Below are positions 1 through 7,552 of a stretch of 7,552 bases of DNA, one piece after another. Both the position numbers and the translations under genes were made by a program. Numbering within the stretch: position 1 is the stretch's first letter; the number at the start of each line of letters is the position of its first letter. The notes under the pieces are model-generated. The model did not search any database, was not told the origin of the DNA, and was given only the letters and a program-made list of their open reading frames with translations. Origin of the DNA: Promethearchaeota archaeon (GTDB taxonomy: Archaea; Asgardarchaeota; Odinarchaeia; Odinarchaeales; JBHLKK01); contig JBHLPL010000094.1 in assembly GCA_048939465.1 (NCBI GenBank), forward strand, positions 1 to 7,552, in the 5' to 3' direction.

Positions 1-63
1 ATATGCTTGACCAACGGTCAAGCAAACCATTAGAAAAACAACCGTCAACAAAGATAGACGCAT
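1..63 (-). CDS. 5' end of a probable secreted or membrane protein (partial, continues off the left edge)
   Basis: ATG at 63 reads MRLSLLTVVFLMVCLTVGQAY: basic N-terminus, hydrophobic core and a GQA cleavage-like end. GGGAGG at 80-75 lies 11 nt upstream. The frame is also open further upstream (in-frame ATG at 177), so the start is not certain. Confidence 0.5.
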   Translation of the reverse strand, partial: MRLSLLTVVFLMVCLTVGQAY

Positions 64-157
64 CTTCCGGTAAGCCTCCCTAGTGAGTGATCTCATGCCG
101 CAATGAGCATCGGAAATATTTGCCTTTAAGAAAAGTCTCAAGAATCTGGGATTCCAG

Positions 158-177
158 GTAAGTGTGGGAGGGCTCAT
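158..177 (-). other. Predicted guide segment of the omega RNA (ATGAGCCCTCCCACACTTAC)
   Basis: Sequence immediately 3' of the inferred right end. TnpB guides are known to derive from the right-end flank. The 20-nt length is assumed. Confidence 0.45.
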
Positions 178-392
178 GTAAACTACTCCTCCCTTGCAGA
201 AGGAGCTTATGACTGTGCTTGACCGCAATTCCCTCTCAGGCTTTGGCCTCATCGCATGTCGAATCATGGGACGGTTTACAGCGCCCCAGCCCGGTAATCC
301 GCATATAGCGTCGGGCTATGGAGTCTACTCGCCCACCCTACCCGCAGGTCATCAACCGTTTCCACATCGGAGAGATGTGTGCCTTTAGACCT
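178..392 (-). ncRNA. Putative TnpB-type omega RNA (right-end RNA) scaffold
   Basis: Minus-strand hairpins: CACATC/GATGTG (379-363), AGCCCG/CGGGCT (317-288), TGGGGCG/CGTCCCA (288-267), AGGC/GCCT, and an 8-bp terminal stem with a GCAA GNRA loop (205-186). The loop GTAAAC (279-274) is complementary to the terminal GTTTAC (183-178), forming a pseudoknot. G-U pairs work only on the minus strand. The 5' end is estimated from the TATA box. Confidence 0.6.
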
Positions 393-414
393 GTTAGCAT
401 GTCTAGCGCAGAAG

Positions 415-421
415 TATTTAA
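415..421 (-). promoter_or_regulatory. Candidate TATA box for the omega RNA
   Basis: TTAAATA on the minus strand, about 25 nt upstream of the structured region. The upstream BRE match is weak. Confidence 0.4.
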
Positions 422-480
422 GGACCGCTCAATTCCTCTCCACCCTTTCAGACGAAGTCTCCATAAGGTGGTTTAGACGA

Positions 481-1377
481 ATGGTATCAGGCGCCGTAAT
501 AACAGAGCCGATAACAGATCAAATCCTATTAATCAAAGGAGAAAACAACGGCAAATTTCCTTATTCCAATTCTATTCTAATCTTGGATAACGAGATCGTC
601 ATAATTGACACAGGCTGCGGAATCAAGATCTTAAGGCAACTAAGAGAGGAATATGATATTGGTTACATCATAAACTCCCATACGCATCCAGACCACTCGG
701 CAGGCAACTGGGTGTTTGAAGACAAGCCAATTCGCGTTCCAGAACAGGGATTTGACACAAGCGGAAACTCTGTGTCCCTCTCAGAGAGGTTTGTTAGCAA
801 TGAACTTGCCCCCCTCTGGAGAAAGATGGTCAAGGATCTAATGGGATTCAGGGATTGCAAGCCGACCAGTACATATAATGAGAGGACAATCTTTGATTTT
901 GGCAAAACGATCTTCAAGCCCATTCATACACCAGGACATACGAAGGACCACTACTGCTTCTATGAGGAAAGGAGAAGAATACTCATATCTTTTGATTATG
1001 ATCTGACTGGATTTCCCTGGTATGGCCATAGAGAATCGAATCTTCAAGAGTTCAAAGAGTCAATAGTGAAAATCAAGGCTCTGTCCCCTGAAGTCGTAAT
1101 ATCGTCTCATAGGGGAGCCATTAGTCAAAACATCGATTATGAATTTGACCAATTCTATGGAAAAATAGATGAAAGGGATGAAAGAATATTATCCCTACTG
1201 ACCGAAAAGAAGAATATTGACCAGCTTGTGGAGTCTGCTCCAATTTACGGTAGATTCCCCTATGTTGAGCCGCTTCTTCGTTATTGGGAAGAACAGATGA
1301 TCATGAAGCATTTAAGGCAACTGGCGATTCGGGGAGAAATAGAAAGAGATGGGGATCTCTATGGTCGCACTGGATAG
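481..1377 (+). CDS. MBL-fold metallo-hydrolase with probable C-terminal winged-helix region (298 aa)
   Basis: Motifs IDTGCG, SHTHPDHSAGN (HxHxDH), HTPGHTKDH and SSHRG. The start is moved from 379 to ATG 481 because 379-480 is the IS hairpin/promoter region and AAGGTGG (465-471) precedes ATG 481. Confidence 0.88.
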   Translation: MVSGAVITEPITDQILLIKGENNGKFPYSNSILILDNEIVIIDTGCGIKILRQLREEYDIGYIINSHTHPDHSAGNWVFEDKPIRVPEQGFDTSGNSVSLSERFVSNELAPLWRKMVKDLMGFRDCKPTSTYNERTIFDFGKTIFKPIHTPGHTKDHYCFYEERRRILISFDYDLTGFPWYGHRESNLQEFKESIVKIKALSPEVVISSHRGAISQNIDYEFDQFYGKIDERDERILSLLTEKKNIDQLVESAPIYGRFPYVEPLLRYWEEQMIMKHLRQLAIRGEIERDGDLYGRTG

Positions 1378-1386
1378 GTATGAAGT

Positions 1387-1415
1387 CTGGTCCTTCGACA
1401 GAGGCCAGGGTTTTT
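1387..1415 (+). terminator. Possible terminator between the convergent MBL and dodecin genes
   Basis: CTGGTC/GGCCAG stem (1387-1408) followed by TTTTT (1411-1415). Confidence 0.3.
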
Positions 1416-1423
1416 GACAAGAT

Positions 1424-1636
1424 TTACTCTCTCACAGACTCAACGAGGAAAGCTATTTTGACATTCGCACGGTACTCAATGATTTTTTTGCCTTCCACCT
1501 TTCCTGTCCAACCAACTACGTCGATGCCCCGGATGTTCCGAATGGTCTTACCTGCCTCCTCAATTGCGTTATCAACAGCATCCTGCCAGCTTTTTTCTGA
1601 AGCTCCTACGAGCTCAATTATCTTAATAACAGTCAC
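1424..1636 (-). CDS. Dodecin family protein (70 aa)
   Basis: KIIELVGASEKSWQDAVDNAIEEAGKTIRNIRG...EYRANVKIAFLV is a typical dodecin pattern. GTG at 1636 follows the RBS GGAGGGTGA (1649-1641), so it is preferred over the ORF-track start at 1669. Confidence 0.92.
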   Translation of the reverse strand: MTVIKIIELVGASEKSWQDAVDNAIEEAGKTIRNIRGIDVVGWTGKVEGKKIIEYRANVKIAFLVESVRE

Positions 1637-1670
1637 GATATCACCCTCCGAACAATAATCGACTAGCAAA

Positions 1671-1687
1671 TTAATATAGATTTCTGT
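1671..1687 (-). promoter_or_regulatory. BRE/TATA candidate for dodecin
   Basis: Minus strand ACAGAAATC-TATATTAA, about 25 nt upstream of the RBS. Confidence 0.4.
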
Positions 1688-1757
1688 CAGAGTCTCTTCC
1701 TTATCGTTTGTAGCATGATAATCAAAAATCCAGAATTACGCCTTTGGGCGTGAGCTC

Positions 1758-1775
1758 TTGGAACATATGTTCCAA
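1758..1775. promoter_or_regulatory. Perfect 18-bp palindrome, probable transcription-factor operator
   Basis: TTGGAACATATGTTCCAA equals its own reverse complement. It lies between the divergent dodecin and YHS genes, just upstream of the YHS BRE/TATA. Confidence 0.55.
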
Positions 1776-1780
1776 TTCTC

Positions 1781-1795
1781 CAGAAAGATTAAATA
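1781..1795 (+). promoter_or_regulatory. BRE/TATA for the YHS gene
   Basis: CAGAAAGA-TTAAATA, 33 nt upstream of TTG 1829. Confidence 0.55.
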
Positions 1796-1828
1796 TAGTA
1801 GATGTCTAAACCATGAAGGGTGTAAGAG

Positions 1829-1972
1829 TTGGCTACAGATCCTGTCTGTAACATGAAGGTTGACGAAAAAACGGCGAAATGGAAGAGCGAATATAAAGGA
1901 AATACGTATTACTTCTGCGCACCGGGATGCAAGAAAGCCTTTGATGAGAATCCAGAGAGATTCCTCGGCTAA
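1829..1972 (+). CDS. Stand-alone YHS/TRASH-domain metal-binding protein (47 aa; not in the ORF track)
   Basis: TTG start. Reads MATDPVCNMKVDEKTAKWKSEYKGNTYYFCAPGCKKAFDENPERFLG*, with the DPVCxM and YYFCxxxC signature motifs. Confidence 0.93.
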   Translation: MATDPVCNMKVDEKTAKWKSEYKGNTYYFCAPGCKKAFDENPERFLG

Positions 1973-2211
1973 TTATACTGGTGAAATGTCAGATACCGAT
2001 TGAACTATGAACTGCGGCTAGTGCACAGTATAGTCATAGGCAAATGCCCAGAAACGATAGATTCAAGATTGGCGTGATCATTTCTGCTGATTTCACACAA
2101 TCATCCCCGCCTTATCAGATGTCAAAATATAAGCGATCTCTTGACAGACCAGCATGATTTGAGCTTTATTCCTTATCGTTGCACAAGGATTTTCATTCCT
2201 TGACGATATTG

Positions 2212-2219
2212 TTAAATTA
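2212..2219 (+). promoter_or_regulatory. TATA candidate for the M20 gene
   Basis: TTAAATTA, about 25 nt upstream of the RBS AGGCGGTG (2244-2251). Confidence 0.4.
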
Positions 2220-2257
2220 TAGTAGACAGATAAATATGAGTCCAGGCGGTGTTATTC

Positions 2258-3679
2258 TTGGACAGAGATTTAGTTTTTGAGCATATTGAGGATAATTATG
2301 AAAGCCACCTTGCTCTTCTTCAGGAGCTCGTAAGACAGCCTTCAATCTCAGCAGAGGAACAAGGCATTCGGGAATGTGCGGAGCTCATTAAAGGCTATAT
2401 GAAGAATTTAGGATGCGAAGAGGCGAGGCTTGTCGAAACATCAGGCAACCCGGTAGTATATGGATTTTATAATGCCGGGGCAGATAAGACAGTCATCATA
2501 TATATGATGTATGATACACAGCCAGTAGATGAACCAGGCTGGACTGTTGACCCTTTGAAGGGCAGGGTCGTCGATGTGGAACCCTTTGGAAAATGCCTCG
2601 TAGCGAGAGGAGCATATAATACAAAAGGCGAACTCGGTGCCTTTATCAATGCTTGCAGGTCCATAACCGCTGCTGGCGAGAAAATTCCAGTGAATCTAAT
2701 CTTTGTCGCCGAAGGCGAGGAAGAACTCGGTAGTCGGCACCTTCCTGAATTCATCAAAAGATATTTAGATAAGCTGAAGGAAGCAAATGCCGTCTTTTTC
2801 CCGTGGACTTCTCAGGACCAGAAAGGAAAGGTTCAGATGTACCTAGGTGTTAAGGGGATTATCTATTTTGAACTTGAGCTCGATGGTAAGAACTGGGGGT
2901 ACGGGCCGACAGAGTTTGACATCCACGGAAGCCTTAAGGGGTGTGTTGATAATCCTGCTCTACGCATGATACAAGCCCTGAGTACATTTACTTCGAAAGA
3001 TGGGAATACGGTCGCAATTAAAGGCTTTTATGACAATGTTCTATCACCCAGTGAAGAAGACATGGGACTTCTGGAAGAACTTGAAAAAACCTTCGACGAG
3101 GACACGATGAAGAGTGAATTGAAAATCGATCGTTTCGTTGATGATGCTCATGGAAAGGAGGCATTGTTGAAGTACTTGTATACGCCCAGCCTAAACATAG
3201 ATGGTATTTGGAGTGGCTATACTGGACCCGGAACAAAGACAGTTCTGCCTCACAGAATCACGGTGAAAATGGATGTAAGGCTAATTCCGGATATGACCGT
3301 GAGCGAAGTACTCCCAAGAATCAGAAAACACTTGGACGATCACGATTTTAATGAGATCAAAATAAGGGACCTTCAAGAGGGCTATAGCTGGGCCAAGACA
3401 AGCATAAAAGAACCGGCTGCTCAGGCCGTACTCAAGACGTATCGCGAGTTTGGATATGAGCCAGAAATATGGCCCCATCTCGCTGGAAGCGCACCATTCT
3501 GCATGTTTAACCGCGACCCTCTGAATCTGCCTTTTGTAATGGGGGGATTGGGACATGGACTCAGAGCCCATGCGCCGGACGAGTATCTGGTGGTAGGAGA
3601 AGGTGGACCGACCCAGGGACTTACGACTCTTGAGAAATCATATGTTGTATTCCTGGACAACTTTTCTAAGATGCTGTAA
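2258..3679 (+). CDS. M20 family peptidase/amidohydrolase (dipeptidase-like, 473 aa) with atypical metal ligands
   Basis: LVRQPSIS, YMMYDTQP, ARGAYNTKG, EGEEELGS, LNIDGIWSGYTGPGTKTVLP and HAPDE match the M20 dipeptidase-like layout. TTG 2258 is chosen because GTG 2249 overlaps the RBS. Confidence 0.9.
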   Translation: MDRDLVFEHIEDNYESHLALLQELVRQPSISAEEQGIRECAELIKGYMKNLGCEEARLVETSGNPVVYGFYNAGADKTVIIYMMYDTQPVDEPGWTVDPLKGRVVDVEPFGKCLVARGAYNTKGELGAFINACRSITAAGEKIPVNLIFVAEGEEELGSRHLPEFIKRYLDKLKEANAVFFPWTSQDQKGKVQMYLGVKGIIYFELELDGKNWGYGPTEFDIHGSLKGCVDNPALRMIQALSTFTSKDGNTVAIKGFYDNVLSPSEEDMGLLEELEKTFDEDTMKSELKIDRFVDDAHGKEALLKYLYTPSLNIDGIWSGYTGPGTKTVLPHRITVKMDVRLIPDMTVSEVLPRIRKHLDDHDFNEIKIRDLQEGYSWAKTSIKEPAAQAVLKTYREFGYEPEIWPHLAGSAPFCMFNRDPLNLPFVMGGLGHGLRAHAPDEYLVVGEGGPTQGLTTLEKSYVVFLDNFSKML

Positions 3680-3693
3680 GAACGATCGTTCTT
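3678..3693. repeat. Perfect 16-bp palindrome overlapping the M20 stop codon
   Basis: AAGAACGATCGTTCTT equals its own reverse complement. Confidence 0.6.
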
Positions 3694-3789
3694 TGGGCTT
3701 TTCCCGTCAAGATTTCGTAAACTCTGACAGCGCCCATTGGGCTTTTTGACTTATTAAACAAGGAACATAAGAAGGAGTCTTAAATTAGA

Positions 3790-3797
3790 TTTATATA
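3790..3797 (+). promoter_or_regulatory. TATA candidate upstream of rpo5
   Basis: TTTATATA matches the archaeal consensus. A weaker alternative, CTTAATAT, is near 3846. Confidence 0.4.
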
Positions 3798-3928
3798 ATA
3801 GGACGATAAACCACAATCTAATTCGTTTACGATTCTGGTTAAGGTCTTAATATTAGCATTCTGTTATTTCCTTAAGTTGTGGATCCGGAATCCTGTTGAA
3901 GGTTTCGCTTTGCGAGGTGAGCTCCACT

Positions 3929-4468
3929 TTGGAAGAAGAGACAATAGAAGAAAAGAAAGCAAGAGGTCTTATTGAGCTGAGAGGATATACGCTGGTTGAG
4001 AAAGAGAAACAAGAGGGAATTACAAGATATATATTCAAAGTCCCCGAAGGTAAGAAGGGAGTGATTTTTGCGATACATCGAAAAATCGTTGGAGTCTCCA
4101 GCATTAAGAAATTATTAGCATTTATGGAAGAAAAAGGGATTGAAAAGGGGATCATTGTAGCCGAGAAGAAATACAGTGCAGCAATCAAAAAGGAAGCCAA
4201 GGCTCAGAAGATTGAGCTGATTCCCGGCCGTCTTCCCCCATCAAATATCTTCAAACACGAGCTAGTACCGGGCCACGAGATACTTACACCCGAGGAGGTC
4301 GAAGAGTTATTACAGAAGTATAGGATAGATCTAAATCAACTTCCCCAGATAAAGGTCTCAGATGTGGCCGTTATAGCCATTGGCGGAAAGAGCGGAGACA
4401 TTATTAAGATCACAAGAAGAAGCCCTACAGCGGGAGAACATATAGCCTACAGATTGGTGGTTCCTTAA
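3929..4468 (+). CDS. rpoH: DNA-directed RNA polymerase subunit Rpo5/RPB5 with N-terminal jaw-like domain (179 aa)
   Basis: C-terminal [47 protein letters not shown] is the RpoH/RPB5 assembly domain. About 105 N-terminal residues carry RGY and VGV..GIIV patterns like eukaryotic RPB5. TTG 3929 follows the RBS GAGGTGA (3914-3920). Confidence 0.9.
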
Positions 4469-4652
4469 CGCCCATCGGCAATTTAACGGGTCAGCAGATA
4501 AAACCATTCTTCAGATGTTCAAAAAGAGTTTCAGCAATGCAGACGACCATAGAACGAACCCTTAGTGTATGACCTAGCTGCCTCAGAAGCAATTCTTGGT
4601 TTCGTTCATCTAAGCAACCTCAAGGAGATCCAGCCTGAAAGGGCAGAGTAGT

Positions 4653-5813
4653 TTATTCCTTTTCCTCGAGTTCTTGATATATTTCTCTCTGGATTACAAA
4701 CCTTTGAACCTCGCTTGTACCTCCGCCAATTCTCATAAGACGGGAATCTCTCATGAGCTTCTCCACGATTGTCTCATTGGTGTAGCCAATTCCCCCCAAC
4801 ACTTGAAGAGCATCATCACAGACCTGAAAGGCCGTCTCTGTTGCAAACAATTTTGCCATAGATGCTTCTTTCGTTGCTCTCAAACCCCGATCTATCATTC
4901 TTGCCGCTCTGAGAGTTAAAAGCCTTGCCGCTTCTATTTTTGTGCCCATATCTGCTATTCTGAAGCTAATAGCCTCGAACCTTCTAATCGGACGCTTAAA
5001 TTGAATTCGCTCTGAAGAGTGCTTCACAGCGGTTTCAAAAGCACCCCTTGCATAGCCTACAGCTTCACCTGCAATTGCTATCCTCTCGGAGTCTAACTCA
5101 TCCATTAGGATGTTGAAACCTTGATTTTGTCCCTTCAATATGTTTTCTTCGTCTATCCTATAACCTTCAAGAACGAAGTGTGTATTCCTGCATCCTTTCA
5201 TGCCCATCAAATCGAAGTCCTTTACAATCCTGAAGCCAGGCCTATCACACTCGATGATGAAAGCAGTCATACCCTTTCTCGGATCTACGTTCGGATCCGT
5301 TATGGCGAAAAGGATCATATAGTCTGAGACACTGCCGTTTGTAATAAATCGCTTTTCTCCGTTTATAATCCAGTCATCCCCATCCTTTACAGCCTTCGTC
5401 TCCATGGCGGCTACATCTGAGCCAGCATTTGGTTCAGTTATGGCGATTGCTCCAATCTTCTCACCCCCGATTATTGGGGTCAAGTATTTCCTTTTCTGCT
5501 CTTCTGTGGCATTCCGATTGATAGATATGCCGTAGAGCGTCGCTGAAGTCATACGAGACATGTCCAAACTAGGACTTACCGCCGAGATTTCCTCTGCTAA
5601 TATGGTTTCGTATACCATTCCTCTGTTGGATCCGCCGTATTCCTGAGGGTGCATTATTCCAAGAAAACCCTCTTTACCAAGATTTCTGATGATATCCCTA
5701 GGATACACATTCTTCTTCTCGATCTCGTCAACCTTTGGCACAACTTCTCTACGAACAAAGTCTTTTGCTTCTTCTCTAAACTCCAGTTCCTCATCGGAGA
5801 ATAACAAGGTCAT
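4653..5813 (-). CDS. Acyl-CoA dehydrogenase, isovaleryl-CoA dehydrogenase-like catalytic arrangement (386 aa)
   Basis: AITEPNAGSD, NGEKRFITNG, RIQFKRPI, QVLGGIGY and RDSRLMRIGGGTSEVQR. The helix-G Glu is present in LDSER. Confidence 0.95.
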   Translation of the reverse strand: MTLLFSDEELEFREEAKDFVRREVVPKVDEIEKKNVYPRDIIRNLGKEGFLGIMHPQEYGGSNRGMVYETILAEEISAVSPSLDMSRMTSATLYGISINRNATEEQKRKYLTPIIGGEKIGAIAITEPNAGSDVAAMETKAVKDGDDWIINGEKRFITNGSVSDYMILFAITDPNVDPRKGMTAFIIECDRPGFRIVKDFDLMGMKGCRNTHFVLEGYRIDEENILKGQNQGFNILMDELDSERIAIAGEAVGYARGAFETAVKHSSERIQFKRPIRRFEAISFRIADMGTKIEAARLLTLRAARMIDRGLRATKEASMAKLFATETAFQVCDDALQVLGGIGYTNETIVEKLMRDSRLMRIGGGTSEVQRFVIQREIYQELEEKE

Positions 5814-5967
5814 ATTCCTTACACCTTTCCTGATTATTCTTTTATGGGAGGTTGCTAATAATATAGGCCATCATAATTTAACGTTTCCCTCTTTCAGAGA
5901 ATCGACCTCATAATAGAGGATCAGAAAATCCATTCATTCTAAGAGTGAAAGGTTTGGGTAGAATGAC

Positions 5968-6708
5968 ATGTTGATTTGGATAGTTATGATTTTCGTTCTG
6001 CTGGCACTAACGGTCTTAATGGTGGGCTATCCTCGAATGAACTTCCCACGCAAACCTTGCGACGAGAGTATGGAGGACGTTAGATTAGTGAAAGCCTTTG
6101 ATAGGATAAGCCAGTGGCCTGGGTTTGAATTCATACGCAGGAACATTGTAAGGGAATTAAAGAGAATTCGTCCTAACGGGATTCTGGTGGATGCTGGCTG
6201 TGGCCCGGGCTATCTGATAATGCGTATTGCCAAAGAGATTCCTGACCTGAAGATCATTGGAGTCGACATATCACAAGGAATGATACAGAGGGCGTCTGTC
6301 AATCTCTCTTCCCTCGGGTTGAGCGACAAGGCGGAGTTCAGGAAGGGTGATATCAAGAGAATGCCCTTTGAGGATGATACAGTAGATCTCATAGTAAGCA
6401 CATTTTCCTTGCATCATTGGTCACATCCGGAAAGGTCATTGAGCGAAATTCATAGGATTCTGAAGCCTAAGGGAAAGTTCCTCCTCTTTGATTTCAGAAG
6501 GGACAGCCGCAGAATATTCTATTGGCTTCTCACATTTGCCTCAAGAACAGGACCCTCAGGACTCAGGGAGGCTAATGAACCAGTTTCATCCTTTCTATCA
6601 AGTTACACGGTTTGTGAAGTGAAGGCTCTTCTTTCCGAAACACAATTCATACGCTGGAAAATCAAACCAAGGCTCGGATGGATGTACATCTGGGCATTCA
6701 AAGGGTGA
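5968..6708 (+). CDS. Class I SAM-dependent methyltransferase with N-terminal membrane anchor (246 aa)
   Basis: Motif I VDAGCGPG, IIGVDIS and GDIKRMPFEDDTVDLIVSTFSLHHW. Hydrophobic N-terminus MLIWIVMIFVLLALTVLMVGY. Confidence 0.9.
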   Translation: MLIWIVMIFVLLALTVLMVGYPRMNFPRKPCDESMEDVRLVKAFDRISQWPGFEFIRRNIVRELKRIRPNGILVDAGCGPGYLIMRIAKEIPDLKIIGVDISQGMIQRASVNLSSLGLSDKAEFRKGDIKRMPFEDDTVDLIVSTFSLHHWSHPERSLSEIHRILKPKGKFLLFDFRRDSRRIFYWLLTFASRTGPSGLREANEPVSSFLSSYTVCEVKALLSETQFIRWKIKPRLGWMYIWAFKG

Positions 6709-6750
6709 AATAGACTCCTATTTCTCCGATCACGTTCAAAAGCGGTCGAT

Positions 6751-6767
6751 AAGGTAAACATTATAAG
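6751..6767 (+). promoter_or_regulatory. BRE/TATA candidate for the thiolase-like gene
   Basis: AAGGTAAACA-TTATAAG, with RBS-like AGGAG at 6816-6820. Confidence 0.4.
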
Positions 6768-6830
6768 TTTCCTTACATCATAAGTCATCTTCACGCAATA
6801 ATAGCCAATCACCTTAGGAGAGAAGGATAT

Positions 6831-7552
6831 TTGAGAAGAGTAGCAGTTGTCGGTGTTGGGAGTACAGAGATTAGATCAACAACACCCGATGTTTCTTTTA
6901 AGGAAATGATGTTCGAGGCAGCAACGAAGGCATATGAAGATGCCGGAGTAGATCCTAGGAGGGATGTCGATAGCTTCATAGCGGCTTCAGAAGACTACTG
7001 GGAAGGATACAGCATATTCGACGAGTTCGTTCCAGATCAAATAGGCGGATTGCTGAAACCGGTCTGCACAGTAACAGATGGACTGTTCGCCCTAATAACG
7101 GCATATATGCAGATACGTACGGGACTGGTGGATATAGCAGTAGTCGAAGCTCATAGCAAAGCCTCCGATATTCTCACTTTTGAAGGTATAGTAGCGTTTG
7201 CGTTAGATCCCATATATCATAGACCTTTAGGTGGACATCCGTTCTATATTGCCGGACTTGAAATGACACGATACTTAGCTGAAACTGATACGTCATTGGA
7301 AGAGTGTGCAATGGTCGTATCGAAAAATAAGAGAAACGCCTTGGACAATCCTTACGCCGCGTTCGGGACAAACATATCATCAGATGACGTGCTAGACTCA
7401 AAGCCCATGTTTTACCCCTTGAAAAACCTTGAAATCAGTCCCTTAGCAGATGCTTCCGTGGTCATAGTTATGGCCTCAGAAGATGTAGCAAGAAGGCTTA
7501 CAGATCTGCCTATCTGGATCAGAGGAGTAGGGTGGTGTTCTGATACTATTCA
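6831..7552 (+). CDS. Thiolase-fold / acetyl-CoA acetyltransferase-like protein (partial, runs off the right edge; not in the ORF track)
   Basis: The TTG-started frame is open to the window end: MRRVAVVGVG..SFKEMMFEAATKAYEDAGVDP..AYMQIRTGLVDIAVVEAHSK..VVSKNKRNALDNPYA..SPLADASVVIVMASEDVARRLTDLPIWIRGVG. This is the archaeal/SCP-x-type thiolase layout. Confidence 0.9.
   Translation, partial: MRRVAVVGVGSTEIRSTTPDVSFKEMMFEAATKAYEDAGVDPRRDVDSFIAASEDYWEGYSIFDEFVPDQIGGLLKPVCTVTDGLFALITAYMQIRTGLVDIAVVEAHSKASDILTFEGIVAFALDPIYHRPLGGHPFYIAGLEMTRYLAETDTSLEECAMVVSKNKRNALDNPYAAFGTNISSDDVLDSKPMFYPLKNLEISPLADASVVIVMASEDVARRLTDLPIWIRGVGWCSDTI

Follow-up and report, generated by a model that had tools for sequence, protein, structure and literature searches.

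A two-domain archaeal Rpo5 with a predicted inactive Mrr-type N-terminal domain akin to the jaw of eukaryotic Rpb5

The analysed window, a stretch of 7,552 nucleotides from an archaeon of the order Odinarchaeales, carries a long form of the gene for RNA polymerase subunit Rpo5 (H). We assign a probability of roughly 0.8 to the reading that its product is a two-domain Rpo5, in which the universal assembly domain at the C-terminus is joined to a domesticated, catalytically dead Mrr-type domain homologous to the jaw of eukaryotic Rpb5, and that this stand-alone gene has replaced the short rpoH. The N-terminal module of Rpb5 has been described as exclusive to eukaryotes (PMC1802627, PMC3906176), and the family Rpb5_N is listed as confined to Eukaryota (PMC3424549). 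A 2026 survey of the small subunits of archaeal polymerases, in which Rpo5 of Bathyarchaeota and Asgard archaea was modelled, does not comment on its length and reports no long Rpo5 (PMC13257274). In a search of the full-text literature, with subscription journals outside its coverage, no account of an archaeal Rpo5 with two domains came to light. Should the long form occupy the same place in the polymerase as Rpb5, one more "eukaryotic" addition to the transcription machinery would be older than eukaryotes, with an origin traceable to a restriction nuclease.

The long rpo5 gene and its assembly domain

The product is about twice as long as the solved archaeal H subunits (77–84 aa), which bears out the preliminary description of a 179-residue Rpo5 longer than the typical archaeal RpoH. 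The features of the gene are collected in Table 1. The TTG codon is the likely start, since it is preceded by the GAGGTGA motif, the homologues begin at the same position, and the upstream frame is not conserved in the same-genus relative L002, where an indel breaks it and both GAGGTGA and TTG are kept. An in-frame GTG at 3917 could also serve as the start. The 26-nt block CTTAAATTAGATTTATATAATAGGA, a candidate BRE/TATA promoter, lies about 130 nt upstream of rpo5, and the rest of the spacer has diverged from that of L002. The stretch was detected in DNA metagenomes from mangrove and sediment; no RNA run contains it, which has no bearing on expression.

Table 1. Features of the long rpo5 gene (positions in the window)
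Feature	Position	Strand	Description
rpo5/rpoH, long form	3929..4468	+	open frame of 179 codons plus stop in the ORF translation; 179 aa, TTG start, TAA stop; the genome's sole Rpb5_C match
N-terminal domain, residues 1–105	3929..4243	+	Mrr_cat match; RGY at 18–20, YSAAIK at 82–87
C-terminal Rpb5_C (assembly) domain, residues 106–179	4244..4465	+	PF01191, E 1.8e-29
Shine-Dalgarno-like GAGGTGA	3914..3920	+	ends 8 nt before TTG; identical in same-genus L002
Promoter-like block CTTAAATTAGATTTATATAATAGGA, putative BRE/TATA	3779..3804	+	25 of 26 bases identical in L002

A Pfam search of the 179-residue protein identified Rpb5_C at residues 106–177 with 101.7 bits against a cut-off of 23.5. The C-domain aligns with subunit H of T. 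kodakarensis at E 8e-25, and the nearest solved sequences are archaeal H subunits, with the match confined to this domain. In fold alignments it is 59–66% identical over 73–74 residues to the classical H/Rpo5 subunits (PDB 4qiw_H, 8cro_H, 7ok0_H), for which the same assembly role on Rpo1 is presumed; these lack the N-domain and are encoded directly upstream of rpoB, whereas every long-form gene examined stands apart from rpoB. Eukaryotic Rpb5 chains in the PDB align with the long Rpo5 from residue 47 to 177 in a single-sequence phmmer search. Five yeast residues, H147, P151, D182, R200 and R212, are critical for the binding of Rpb1 (PMC1802627, Zaros et al.). In the phmmer alignment to 1dzf the numbering differs by 37 throughout, so that they are equivalent to H110, P114, D145, R163 and R175 of the window protein, and all five are invariant or nearly so among the homologues (alignment A1). 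To judge from these alignments, the C-domain holds everything known to be needed for binding of the largest subunit.

The long rpo5 is the only Rpb5_C match in the 1.96-Mb, 91%-complete genome, and is predicted to encode its RNA polymerase subunit Rpo5 (H). The metabolic surroundings of the gene (genes for an M20 peptidase and an acyl-CoA dehydrogenase), outside the rpoB–rpoA cluster, and a resemblance of the N-domain to NA-iREase1 (PF22722; 25 bits, below the Pfam cut-off) would also suit a paralogue that is not a polymerase subunit, for example an inactivated defence or regulatory nuclease module with a borrowed RpoH domain. This is very unlikely, as the gene is the sole carrier of Rpb5_C in the genome, the operon position is empty and the five Rpb1-contact residues are all present. 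Moreover, in none of the surveyed host-phylum genomes do the long and short forms occur together, and some genomes have two long copies in tandem.

Fold and kinship of the N-terminal domain

Residues 11–100 match Mrr_cat (PF04471) in Pfam with 30.2 bits, above the cut-off of 21. The full-length AlphaFold model, built on 30 homologues, has a pLDDT of 89.6. In this model a module of PD-(D/E)XK fold precedes Rpb5_C in one chain, as in eukaryotic Rpb5. The modelled N-domain has the order α-β-β-β-α-β-α-β, with a core α-β-β-β-α-β as in the PD-(D/E)XK enzymes. An alignment with true Mrr_cat proteins places EGITRY at the catalytic GDGGxD and IFAI at VQCK (QxK), and the consensus at the latter site across the long-form family is IWCxP (alignment A1). 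The GY turn and the pattern ...VG...GI.VT..FT..A...IEL are common to the N-domain and the true Mrr_cat proteins. With both catalytic motifs, GDGGxD and QxK, lost, the domain cannot work as a nuclease, and it is best described from its sequence as a catalytically dead Mrr-type PD-(D/E)XK fold. It carries a net charge of +7 and is conserved like the C-domain (79% versus 77% identity within the genus).

The full-length model superimposes on the Rpb5 chains of Pol I, II, III and IV and of African swine fever virus (ASFV) with TMq values of 0.76–0.82 over about 200 columns. These whole-chain values are helped by the C-domain, and the N-domain was therefore folded alone (pLDDT 88.7). An exhaustive structural search with this N-only model returned AF1548 (Z 10.5), NucS (10.1), Can2 (9.5) and AspBHI (8.6), as well as Rpb5 at 8.3 and 8.2; the nucleases of Mrr-like or NucS-like type thus reach Z 10.5–9.3 compared with 8.2–8.3 for Rpb5. 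AF1548 superimposes on the N-domain with a root mean square deviation of 2.7 over 98 residues. A Foldseek comparison of the N-domain, proposed in the preliminary description as a check, did retrieve the ASFV Rpb5, but with EndoMS level with it. By its modelled fold alone, the N-domain is slightly closer to the Mrr-like nucleases than to Rpb5, and the fold does not decide between them. The Mrr nucleases (PF04471; AF1548, PDB 1y88) and NA-iREase1 have the same fold (Z 10.5). They possess the catalytic D and (E/Q)xK that are replaced in the Rpo5 N-domain. Unlike them, the N-domain is fused to a subunit of RNA polymerase, and its gene is maintained in single copy with a housekeeping character.

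A profile of the Bathyarchaeia-type N-domains was compared with 1.84 billion proteins. Other long Rpo5 proteins were retrieved first, followed by true Mrr_cat nucleases, which score up to 59 bits (E down to 3.5e-11) against about 40 bits for Rpb5; eukaryote-length Rpb5 is absent among the best 150 matches. The N-domain accordingly reads, by its sequence, as a bona fide although inactive member of Mrr_cat.

Kinship with Rpb5 was tested with profiles of the N-domain only, without the C-domain, against 177,635 distinct PDB sequences that include Rpb5 and many PD-(D/E)XK nucleases. Profile A2 comprises 29 Bathyarchaeia-type N-domains, the window protein among them; A3 is a broad set of 61 archaeal N-domains from two phyla, and A4 contains 27 N-domains from other families of the host phylum, with the window protein and Bathyarchaeia left out. 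All three profiles match Rpb5 alone among the PDB sequences. With A2, the Rpb5 chains are the top matches at E 0.005–0.05. With A3, Rpb5 of Drosophila is matched at 1.7e-9, human at 2.7e-9, Arabidopsis at 8e-7 and yeast at 2.4e-4. With A4, Rpb5 is matched at 1.8e-8 over its residues 12–116, and the span of Rpb5 covered in the A3 and A4 alignments is about residues 12–117. Neither A3 nor A4 retrieved any Mrr-like, NucS, MspJI or AspBHI chain from these sequences below E 10. Sequence profiles, unlike the fold, separate the kinship of the N-domain with Rpb5 from that with the nucleases. The preliminary description had opposed an Mrr-like grouping to one with RPB5; membership in Mrr_cat is true, yet the PDB profiles match only Rpb5. 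The window gene is of the Bathyarchaeia type and less Rpb5-like than the forms in the other families of the host phylum.

The alignment of the N-domain with Rpb5 is collinear. It covers helix 1, whose terminal RGY faces DRGY, and proceeds through a "vvFP" strand, a VG(V/I)KTI(K/R) turn-helix and an "aIlV" strand to the (Y/M)TxxAK loop. The LRGY motif comprises residues 17–20 and is aligned to human DRGY, with R18 and Y20 invariant in A1; RGY (residues 18–20) does not vary across the family. In yeast Rpb5, the substitution R26E in the DRGY region is lethal. Yeast P118, located in the (Y/M)TxxAK loop, faces the DNA cleft (PMC1802627). A eukaryotic insertion of about 18–20 residues after RGY faces a gap in the archaeal N-domains in the HMMER alignment. 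Three matches with Rpb5 that had been proposed by eye were reproduced by HMMER, namely RGY/DRGY, IVGVSSIKK...EKGIIV/KVGIKTIK...TRALIV and NIFKHELVP/NITEHELVP.

By contrast, searches with the Pfam family Rpb5_N (PF03871) left the window protein unmatched up to E 0.1, and the whole genome up to E 10. Among the archaeal relatives, L123 from the same phylum comes closest to Rpb5_N, with E 1.3e-4 and 23 bits, below the cut-off of 27. The N-module spans 105 residues compared with about 140 in eukaryotes, and lacks the eukaryotic insertion. The earlier claim of a full-length RPB5-type subunit is thus upheld by the architecture and by the N-only profiles, but has to be qualified by the missing Rpb5_N match, the shorter N-domain without the insertion and its concurrent assignment to Mrr_cat.

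These features were weighed against a convergent fusion, in which an archaeal Mrr-like domain joined RpoH independently and the eukaryotic jaw arose from another PD-(D/E)XK ancestor. A domain that passes Pfam Mrr_cat and fails Rpb5_N, with AF1548, NucS and Can2 as top structural matches and a profile that reaches Mrr_cat nucleases at E 3.5e-11 among 1.8 billion proteins, might be expected under such a history. Nonetheless, convergence is unlikely in view of the N-only profiles, which single out Rpb5 among the 177,635 PDB sequences with no nuclease below E 10, and of an alignment that stays collinear between helix 1 (RGY/DRGY) and the TxxAK loop. In addition, the order of the domains, the position of the linker and the predicted inter-domain orientation are the same as in Rpb5, and one archaeal member touches Rpb5_N at 23 bits. 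We conclude from the sequence comparisons that the archaeal Rpo5 N-domains are homologous to Rpb5_N and link it with Mrr_cat, with the window protein as a member.

A comparison with eukaryotic Rpb5/RPABC1 (PF03871 and PF01191; PDB 1dzf, 8uhd_E, 7eu0_E, 9mu7_E) reveals the same two domains in the same order. Both share a PD-(D/E)XK fold without nuclease residues, an RGY that closes helix 1, a VG(V/I)xx(I/V)(K/R) strand-helix and the (Y/M)TxxAK loop; the five Rpb1-binding residues are kept and the predicted TMq is about 0.8. The archaeal long form differs in its smaller N-domain (about 105 versus 140 aa), in which the roughly 20 residues inserted behind RGY in eukaryotes are absent and the first helix is shorter. 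It also falls below Pfam Rpb5_N while still scoring as Mrr_cat, and would serve one polymerase instead of three.

The top Foldseek match of the full-length model is the Rpb5 of ASFV and giant viruses (PDB 8q3b_E, 8q3k_E; E 2.4e-14), which has a compact jaw, is of viral origin and is just 14–24% identical; there is no evidence of a direct relationship. ASFV Rpb5 ranks with the best in the fold searches whether the full-length or the N-only model is used, which would agree with a passage of the two-domain gene from eukaryotes or giant viruses to archaea. Such a direction is extremely unlikely, since the archaeal domain is less derived, scoring as Mrr_cat and lacking the eukaryotic insertion, and occurs, deeply diverged, in about 20 families of a single phylum as well as in Bathyarchaeia.

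Distribution, gene order and origin of the long form

Both domains are common to more than 150 protein clusters and 238 genome loci, and the two-domain protein is therefore not a product of chance. An Rpo5 match was found in 146 of the 151 host-phylum genomes. As judged by the extent of the match, the long form occurs in about 20 of the 27 families, whereas a short form of 81–125 codons is found in families f2 (same order as the host), f8, f9, f13, f15 and probably f23. A scan in which a single genome represented each species left 80 loci; all are long, and all but one are labelled Bathyarchaeia. The taxonomic survey called for in the preliminary description thus places the two-domain Rpo5 in most host-phylum families and in every Bathyarchaeia locus sampled. 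The N-domains diverge deeply, with 22–50% identity between archaeal long forms.

Several variants were observed. Two long rpo5 genes stand in tandem at L109:1474-2034 and L109:2115-2666, and likewise in ten genomes of family f6, an arrangement that hints at alternative polymerase subunits. In L126, L127 and L128, Rpo5 extends to 439–475 codons, with three tandem dead-nuclease N-domains ahead of Rpb5_C. The long Rpo5 of L124 (617-1642, minus strand) and L125 (759-1580, minus strand) ends in 100–150 residues of K/P/A/T-rich repeats (e.g. KPKPKTTT), reminiscent in sequence of the DNA-binding tails of histone H1 type. The loci L116–L122 form a divergent long-form clade with a C-domain insertion of about 25 residues; their N-terminal helix, LWxxVKKIxxxGRGY, is the archaeal sequence closest to the eukaryotic LWRIRKT..DRGY helix. 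Two Bathyarchaeota GenBank records (P0280, P0281) are 81 aa long and correspond to the C-terminal part, and P0271 in the same 90% cluster has 182 aa. Start-codon calls in GenBank records help to conceal the Rpo5 N-domain in databases.

In the three short-form loci that were fetched, rpoB lies directly downstream (3/3). By contrast, no rpoB was found near any of the 80 Bathyarchaeia-type loci within up to 6 kb on each side, nor near the host-phylum long-form loci, for which the flanks were shorter. The gene order in the sister family is tRNA–tRNA–rpoH (79 codons)–rpoB. In the host genome, a homologous intron-bearing tRNA gene (C66:10830-10930) is followed by 222 nt and then by rpoB (C66:11153), with no detectable remnant of rpoH between them. 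Because this interval is devoid of rpoH, unlike that of the sister family, the operonic short rpoH has been lost here and the long gene is the sole Rpo5. What is new in this genus is the loss of the operonic rpoH that sister genomes have kept, with a stand-alone long gene in its place.

The window Rpo5 is 48–58% identical to every sampled Bathyarchaeia protein, compared with 29–47% for the long forms of its own phylum. For the C-domain, the median identity is 65% to Bathyarchaeia, 48% to the own phylum and 51% to the short RpoH of the same order; for the N-domain, which the latter does not have, it is 42% and 29%, respectively. In a quick maximum-likelihood tree, the window Rpo5 and that of its genus-mate fall inside a Bathyarchaeia clade, with an SH-aLRT value of 96 for the enclosing 44-row set. 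As the gene is most similar to the Bathyarchaeia version, its acquisition from Bathyarchaeia by this genus is, on balance, probable. However, an AU test does not reject a tree joining all own-phylum rows (p 0.46), so that monophyly of the host phylum's genes is left standing beside horizontal transfer.

The identity of the host genome was also considered, and the host is taken to be an Asgard archaeon. Strong matches to Ras-family GTPases number nine in this genome and nine in the nearest public relative, compared with none in four Bathyarchaeia genomes; this relative is labelled Candidatus Hodarchaeota and has 78% identity in Rpo5. An ESCRT-II EAP30 protein is encoded in the genome above the Pfam cut-off. 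A genome search with Pfam profilin carries no weight, as it matched no control genome. The host rpoB is 74% identical to that of same-order genomes (1.3–1.4 Mb).

Besides rpo5, the window (1–7552) carries genes for dodecin, M20 peptidase and acyl-CoA dehydrogenase, for a class I methyltransferase, and for two further proteins, one with a metallo-beta-lactamase fold and one resembling thiolase. All seven window genes are syntenic, with 69–90% identity, on a 25-kb contig of L002, an independent assembly of the same genus. Contamination of the 7.5-kb neighbourhood was rejected as unlikely on account of this synteny. Rpo5 has diverged further from its L002 counterpart (78% identity) than have the neighbouring metabolic proteins M20 peptidase and acyl-CoA dehydrogenase (88–89%).

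Proposed role and evolutionary scenario

We infer that the long Rpo5 is a component of the polymerase; the place and function given here for its N-domain are likewise proposals. The C-domain is the universal assembly domain of archaea and eukaryotes, which binds the largest subunit. By analogy with the structures of Pol II, the N-domain would make up the outer portion of the lower jaw, lengthening it next to the downstream duplex in the DNA channel, and would add a basic surface available to DNA or to factors of initiation and elongation. The Rpb5 module docks TFIIB, TFIIF and other factors (PMC13257274 introduction, PMC1802627), and the archaeal N-domain may similarly stabilise the loading of DNA or act as a docking site. 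A possible functional analogue is Rpo13 of the Sulfolobales (PDB 2waq; PMC2675907, PMC3479171), an extra element of the lower jaw that lies beside Rpo5 and contacts downstream DNA; unlike the N-domain, it is an unrelated helix-turn-helix protein, encoded by a separate gene and confined to some Thermoprotei. The stand-alone long rpo5, with its own conserved promoter-like element, has superseded the short rpoH upstream of rpoB.

A broader scenario is put forward tentatively, at somewhat less than even odds. The Rpb5 jaw would be an archaeal invention, an inactivated Mrr-type nuclease that was fused to RpoH before the emergence of eukaryotes and was inherited by them from an Asgard ancestor. The long gene would behave as a mobile replacement cassette, of which a Bathyarchaeia-type copy displaced the operonic short rpoH across phyla in this Odin-like genus. 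The loss of the operonic rpoH together with a Bathyarchaeia-type stand-alone gene would represent a rare displacement of a core RNA polymerase subunit.

Further observations concern a related domain and the rpoB region. In P0167, a protein of 283 aa, a weak match to a TFIIB-type zinc ribbon (E 0.006, below the cut-off) is followed by a domain similar to the Rpo5 N-domain, so that the dead nuclease fold may have been put to use in transcription in a further way. The host rpoB/Rpo2 gene (C66:11153-17632; L136) is a single frame of 2159 codons, with Rpb2 domain 3 split by a pair of intein stretches (Intein_splicing, LAGLIDADG); the rpoB of the same-order relative L130 is free of this intein-bearing insert of about 3.2 kb. 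Intron-bearing tRNA genes of 101–144 nt adjoin rpoB in the host genome (L133:1431-1531, equal to C66:10830-10930) and in L130 (3386-3515, 3525-3625 and 3953-4096). These tRNA genes score 39–49 bits with Rfam and were missed by ARAGORN.
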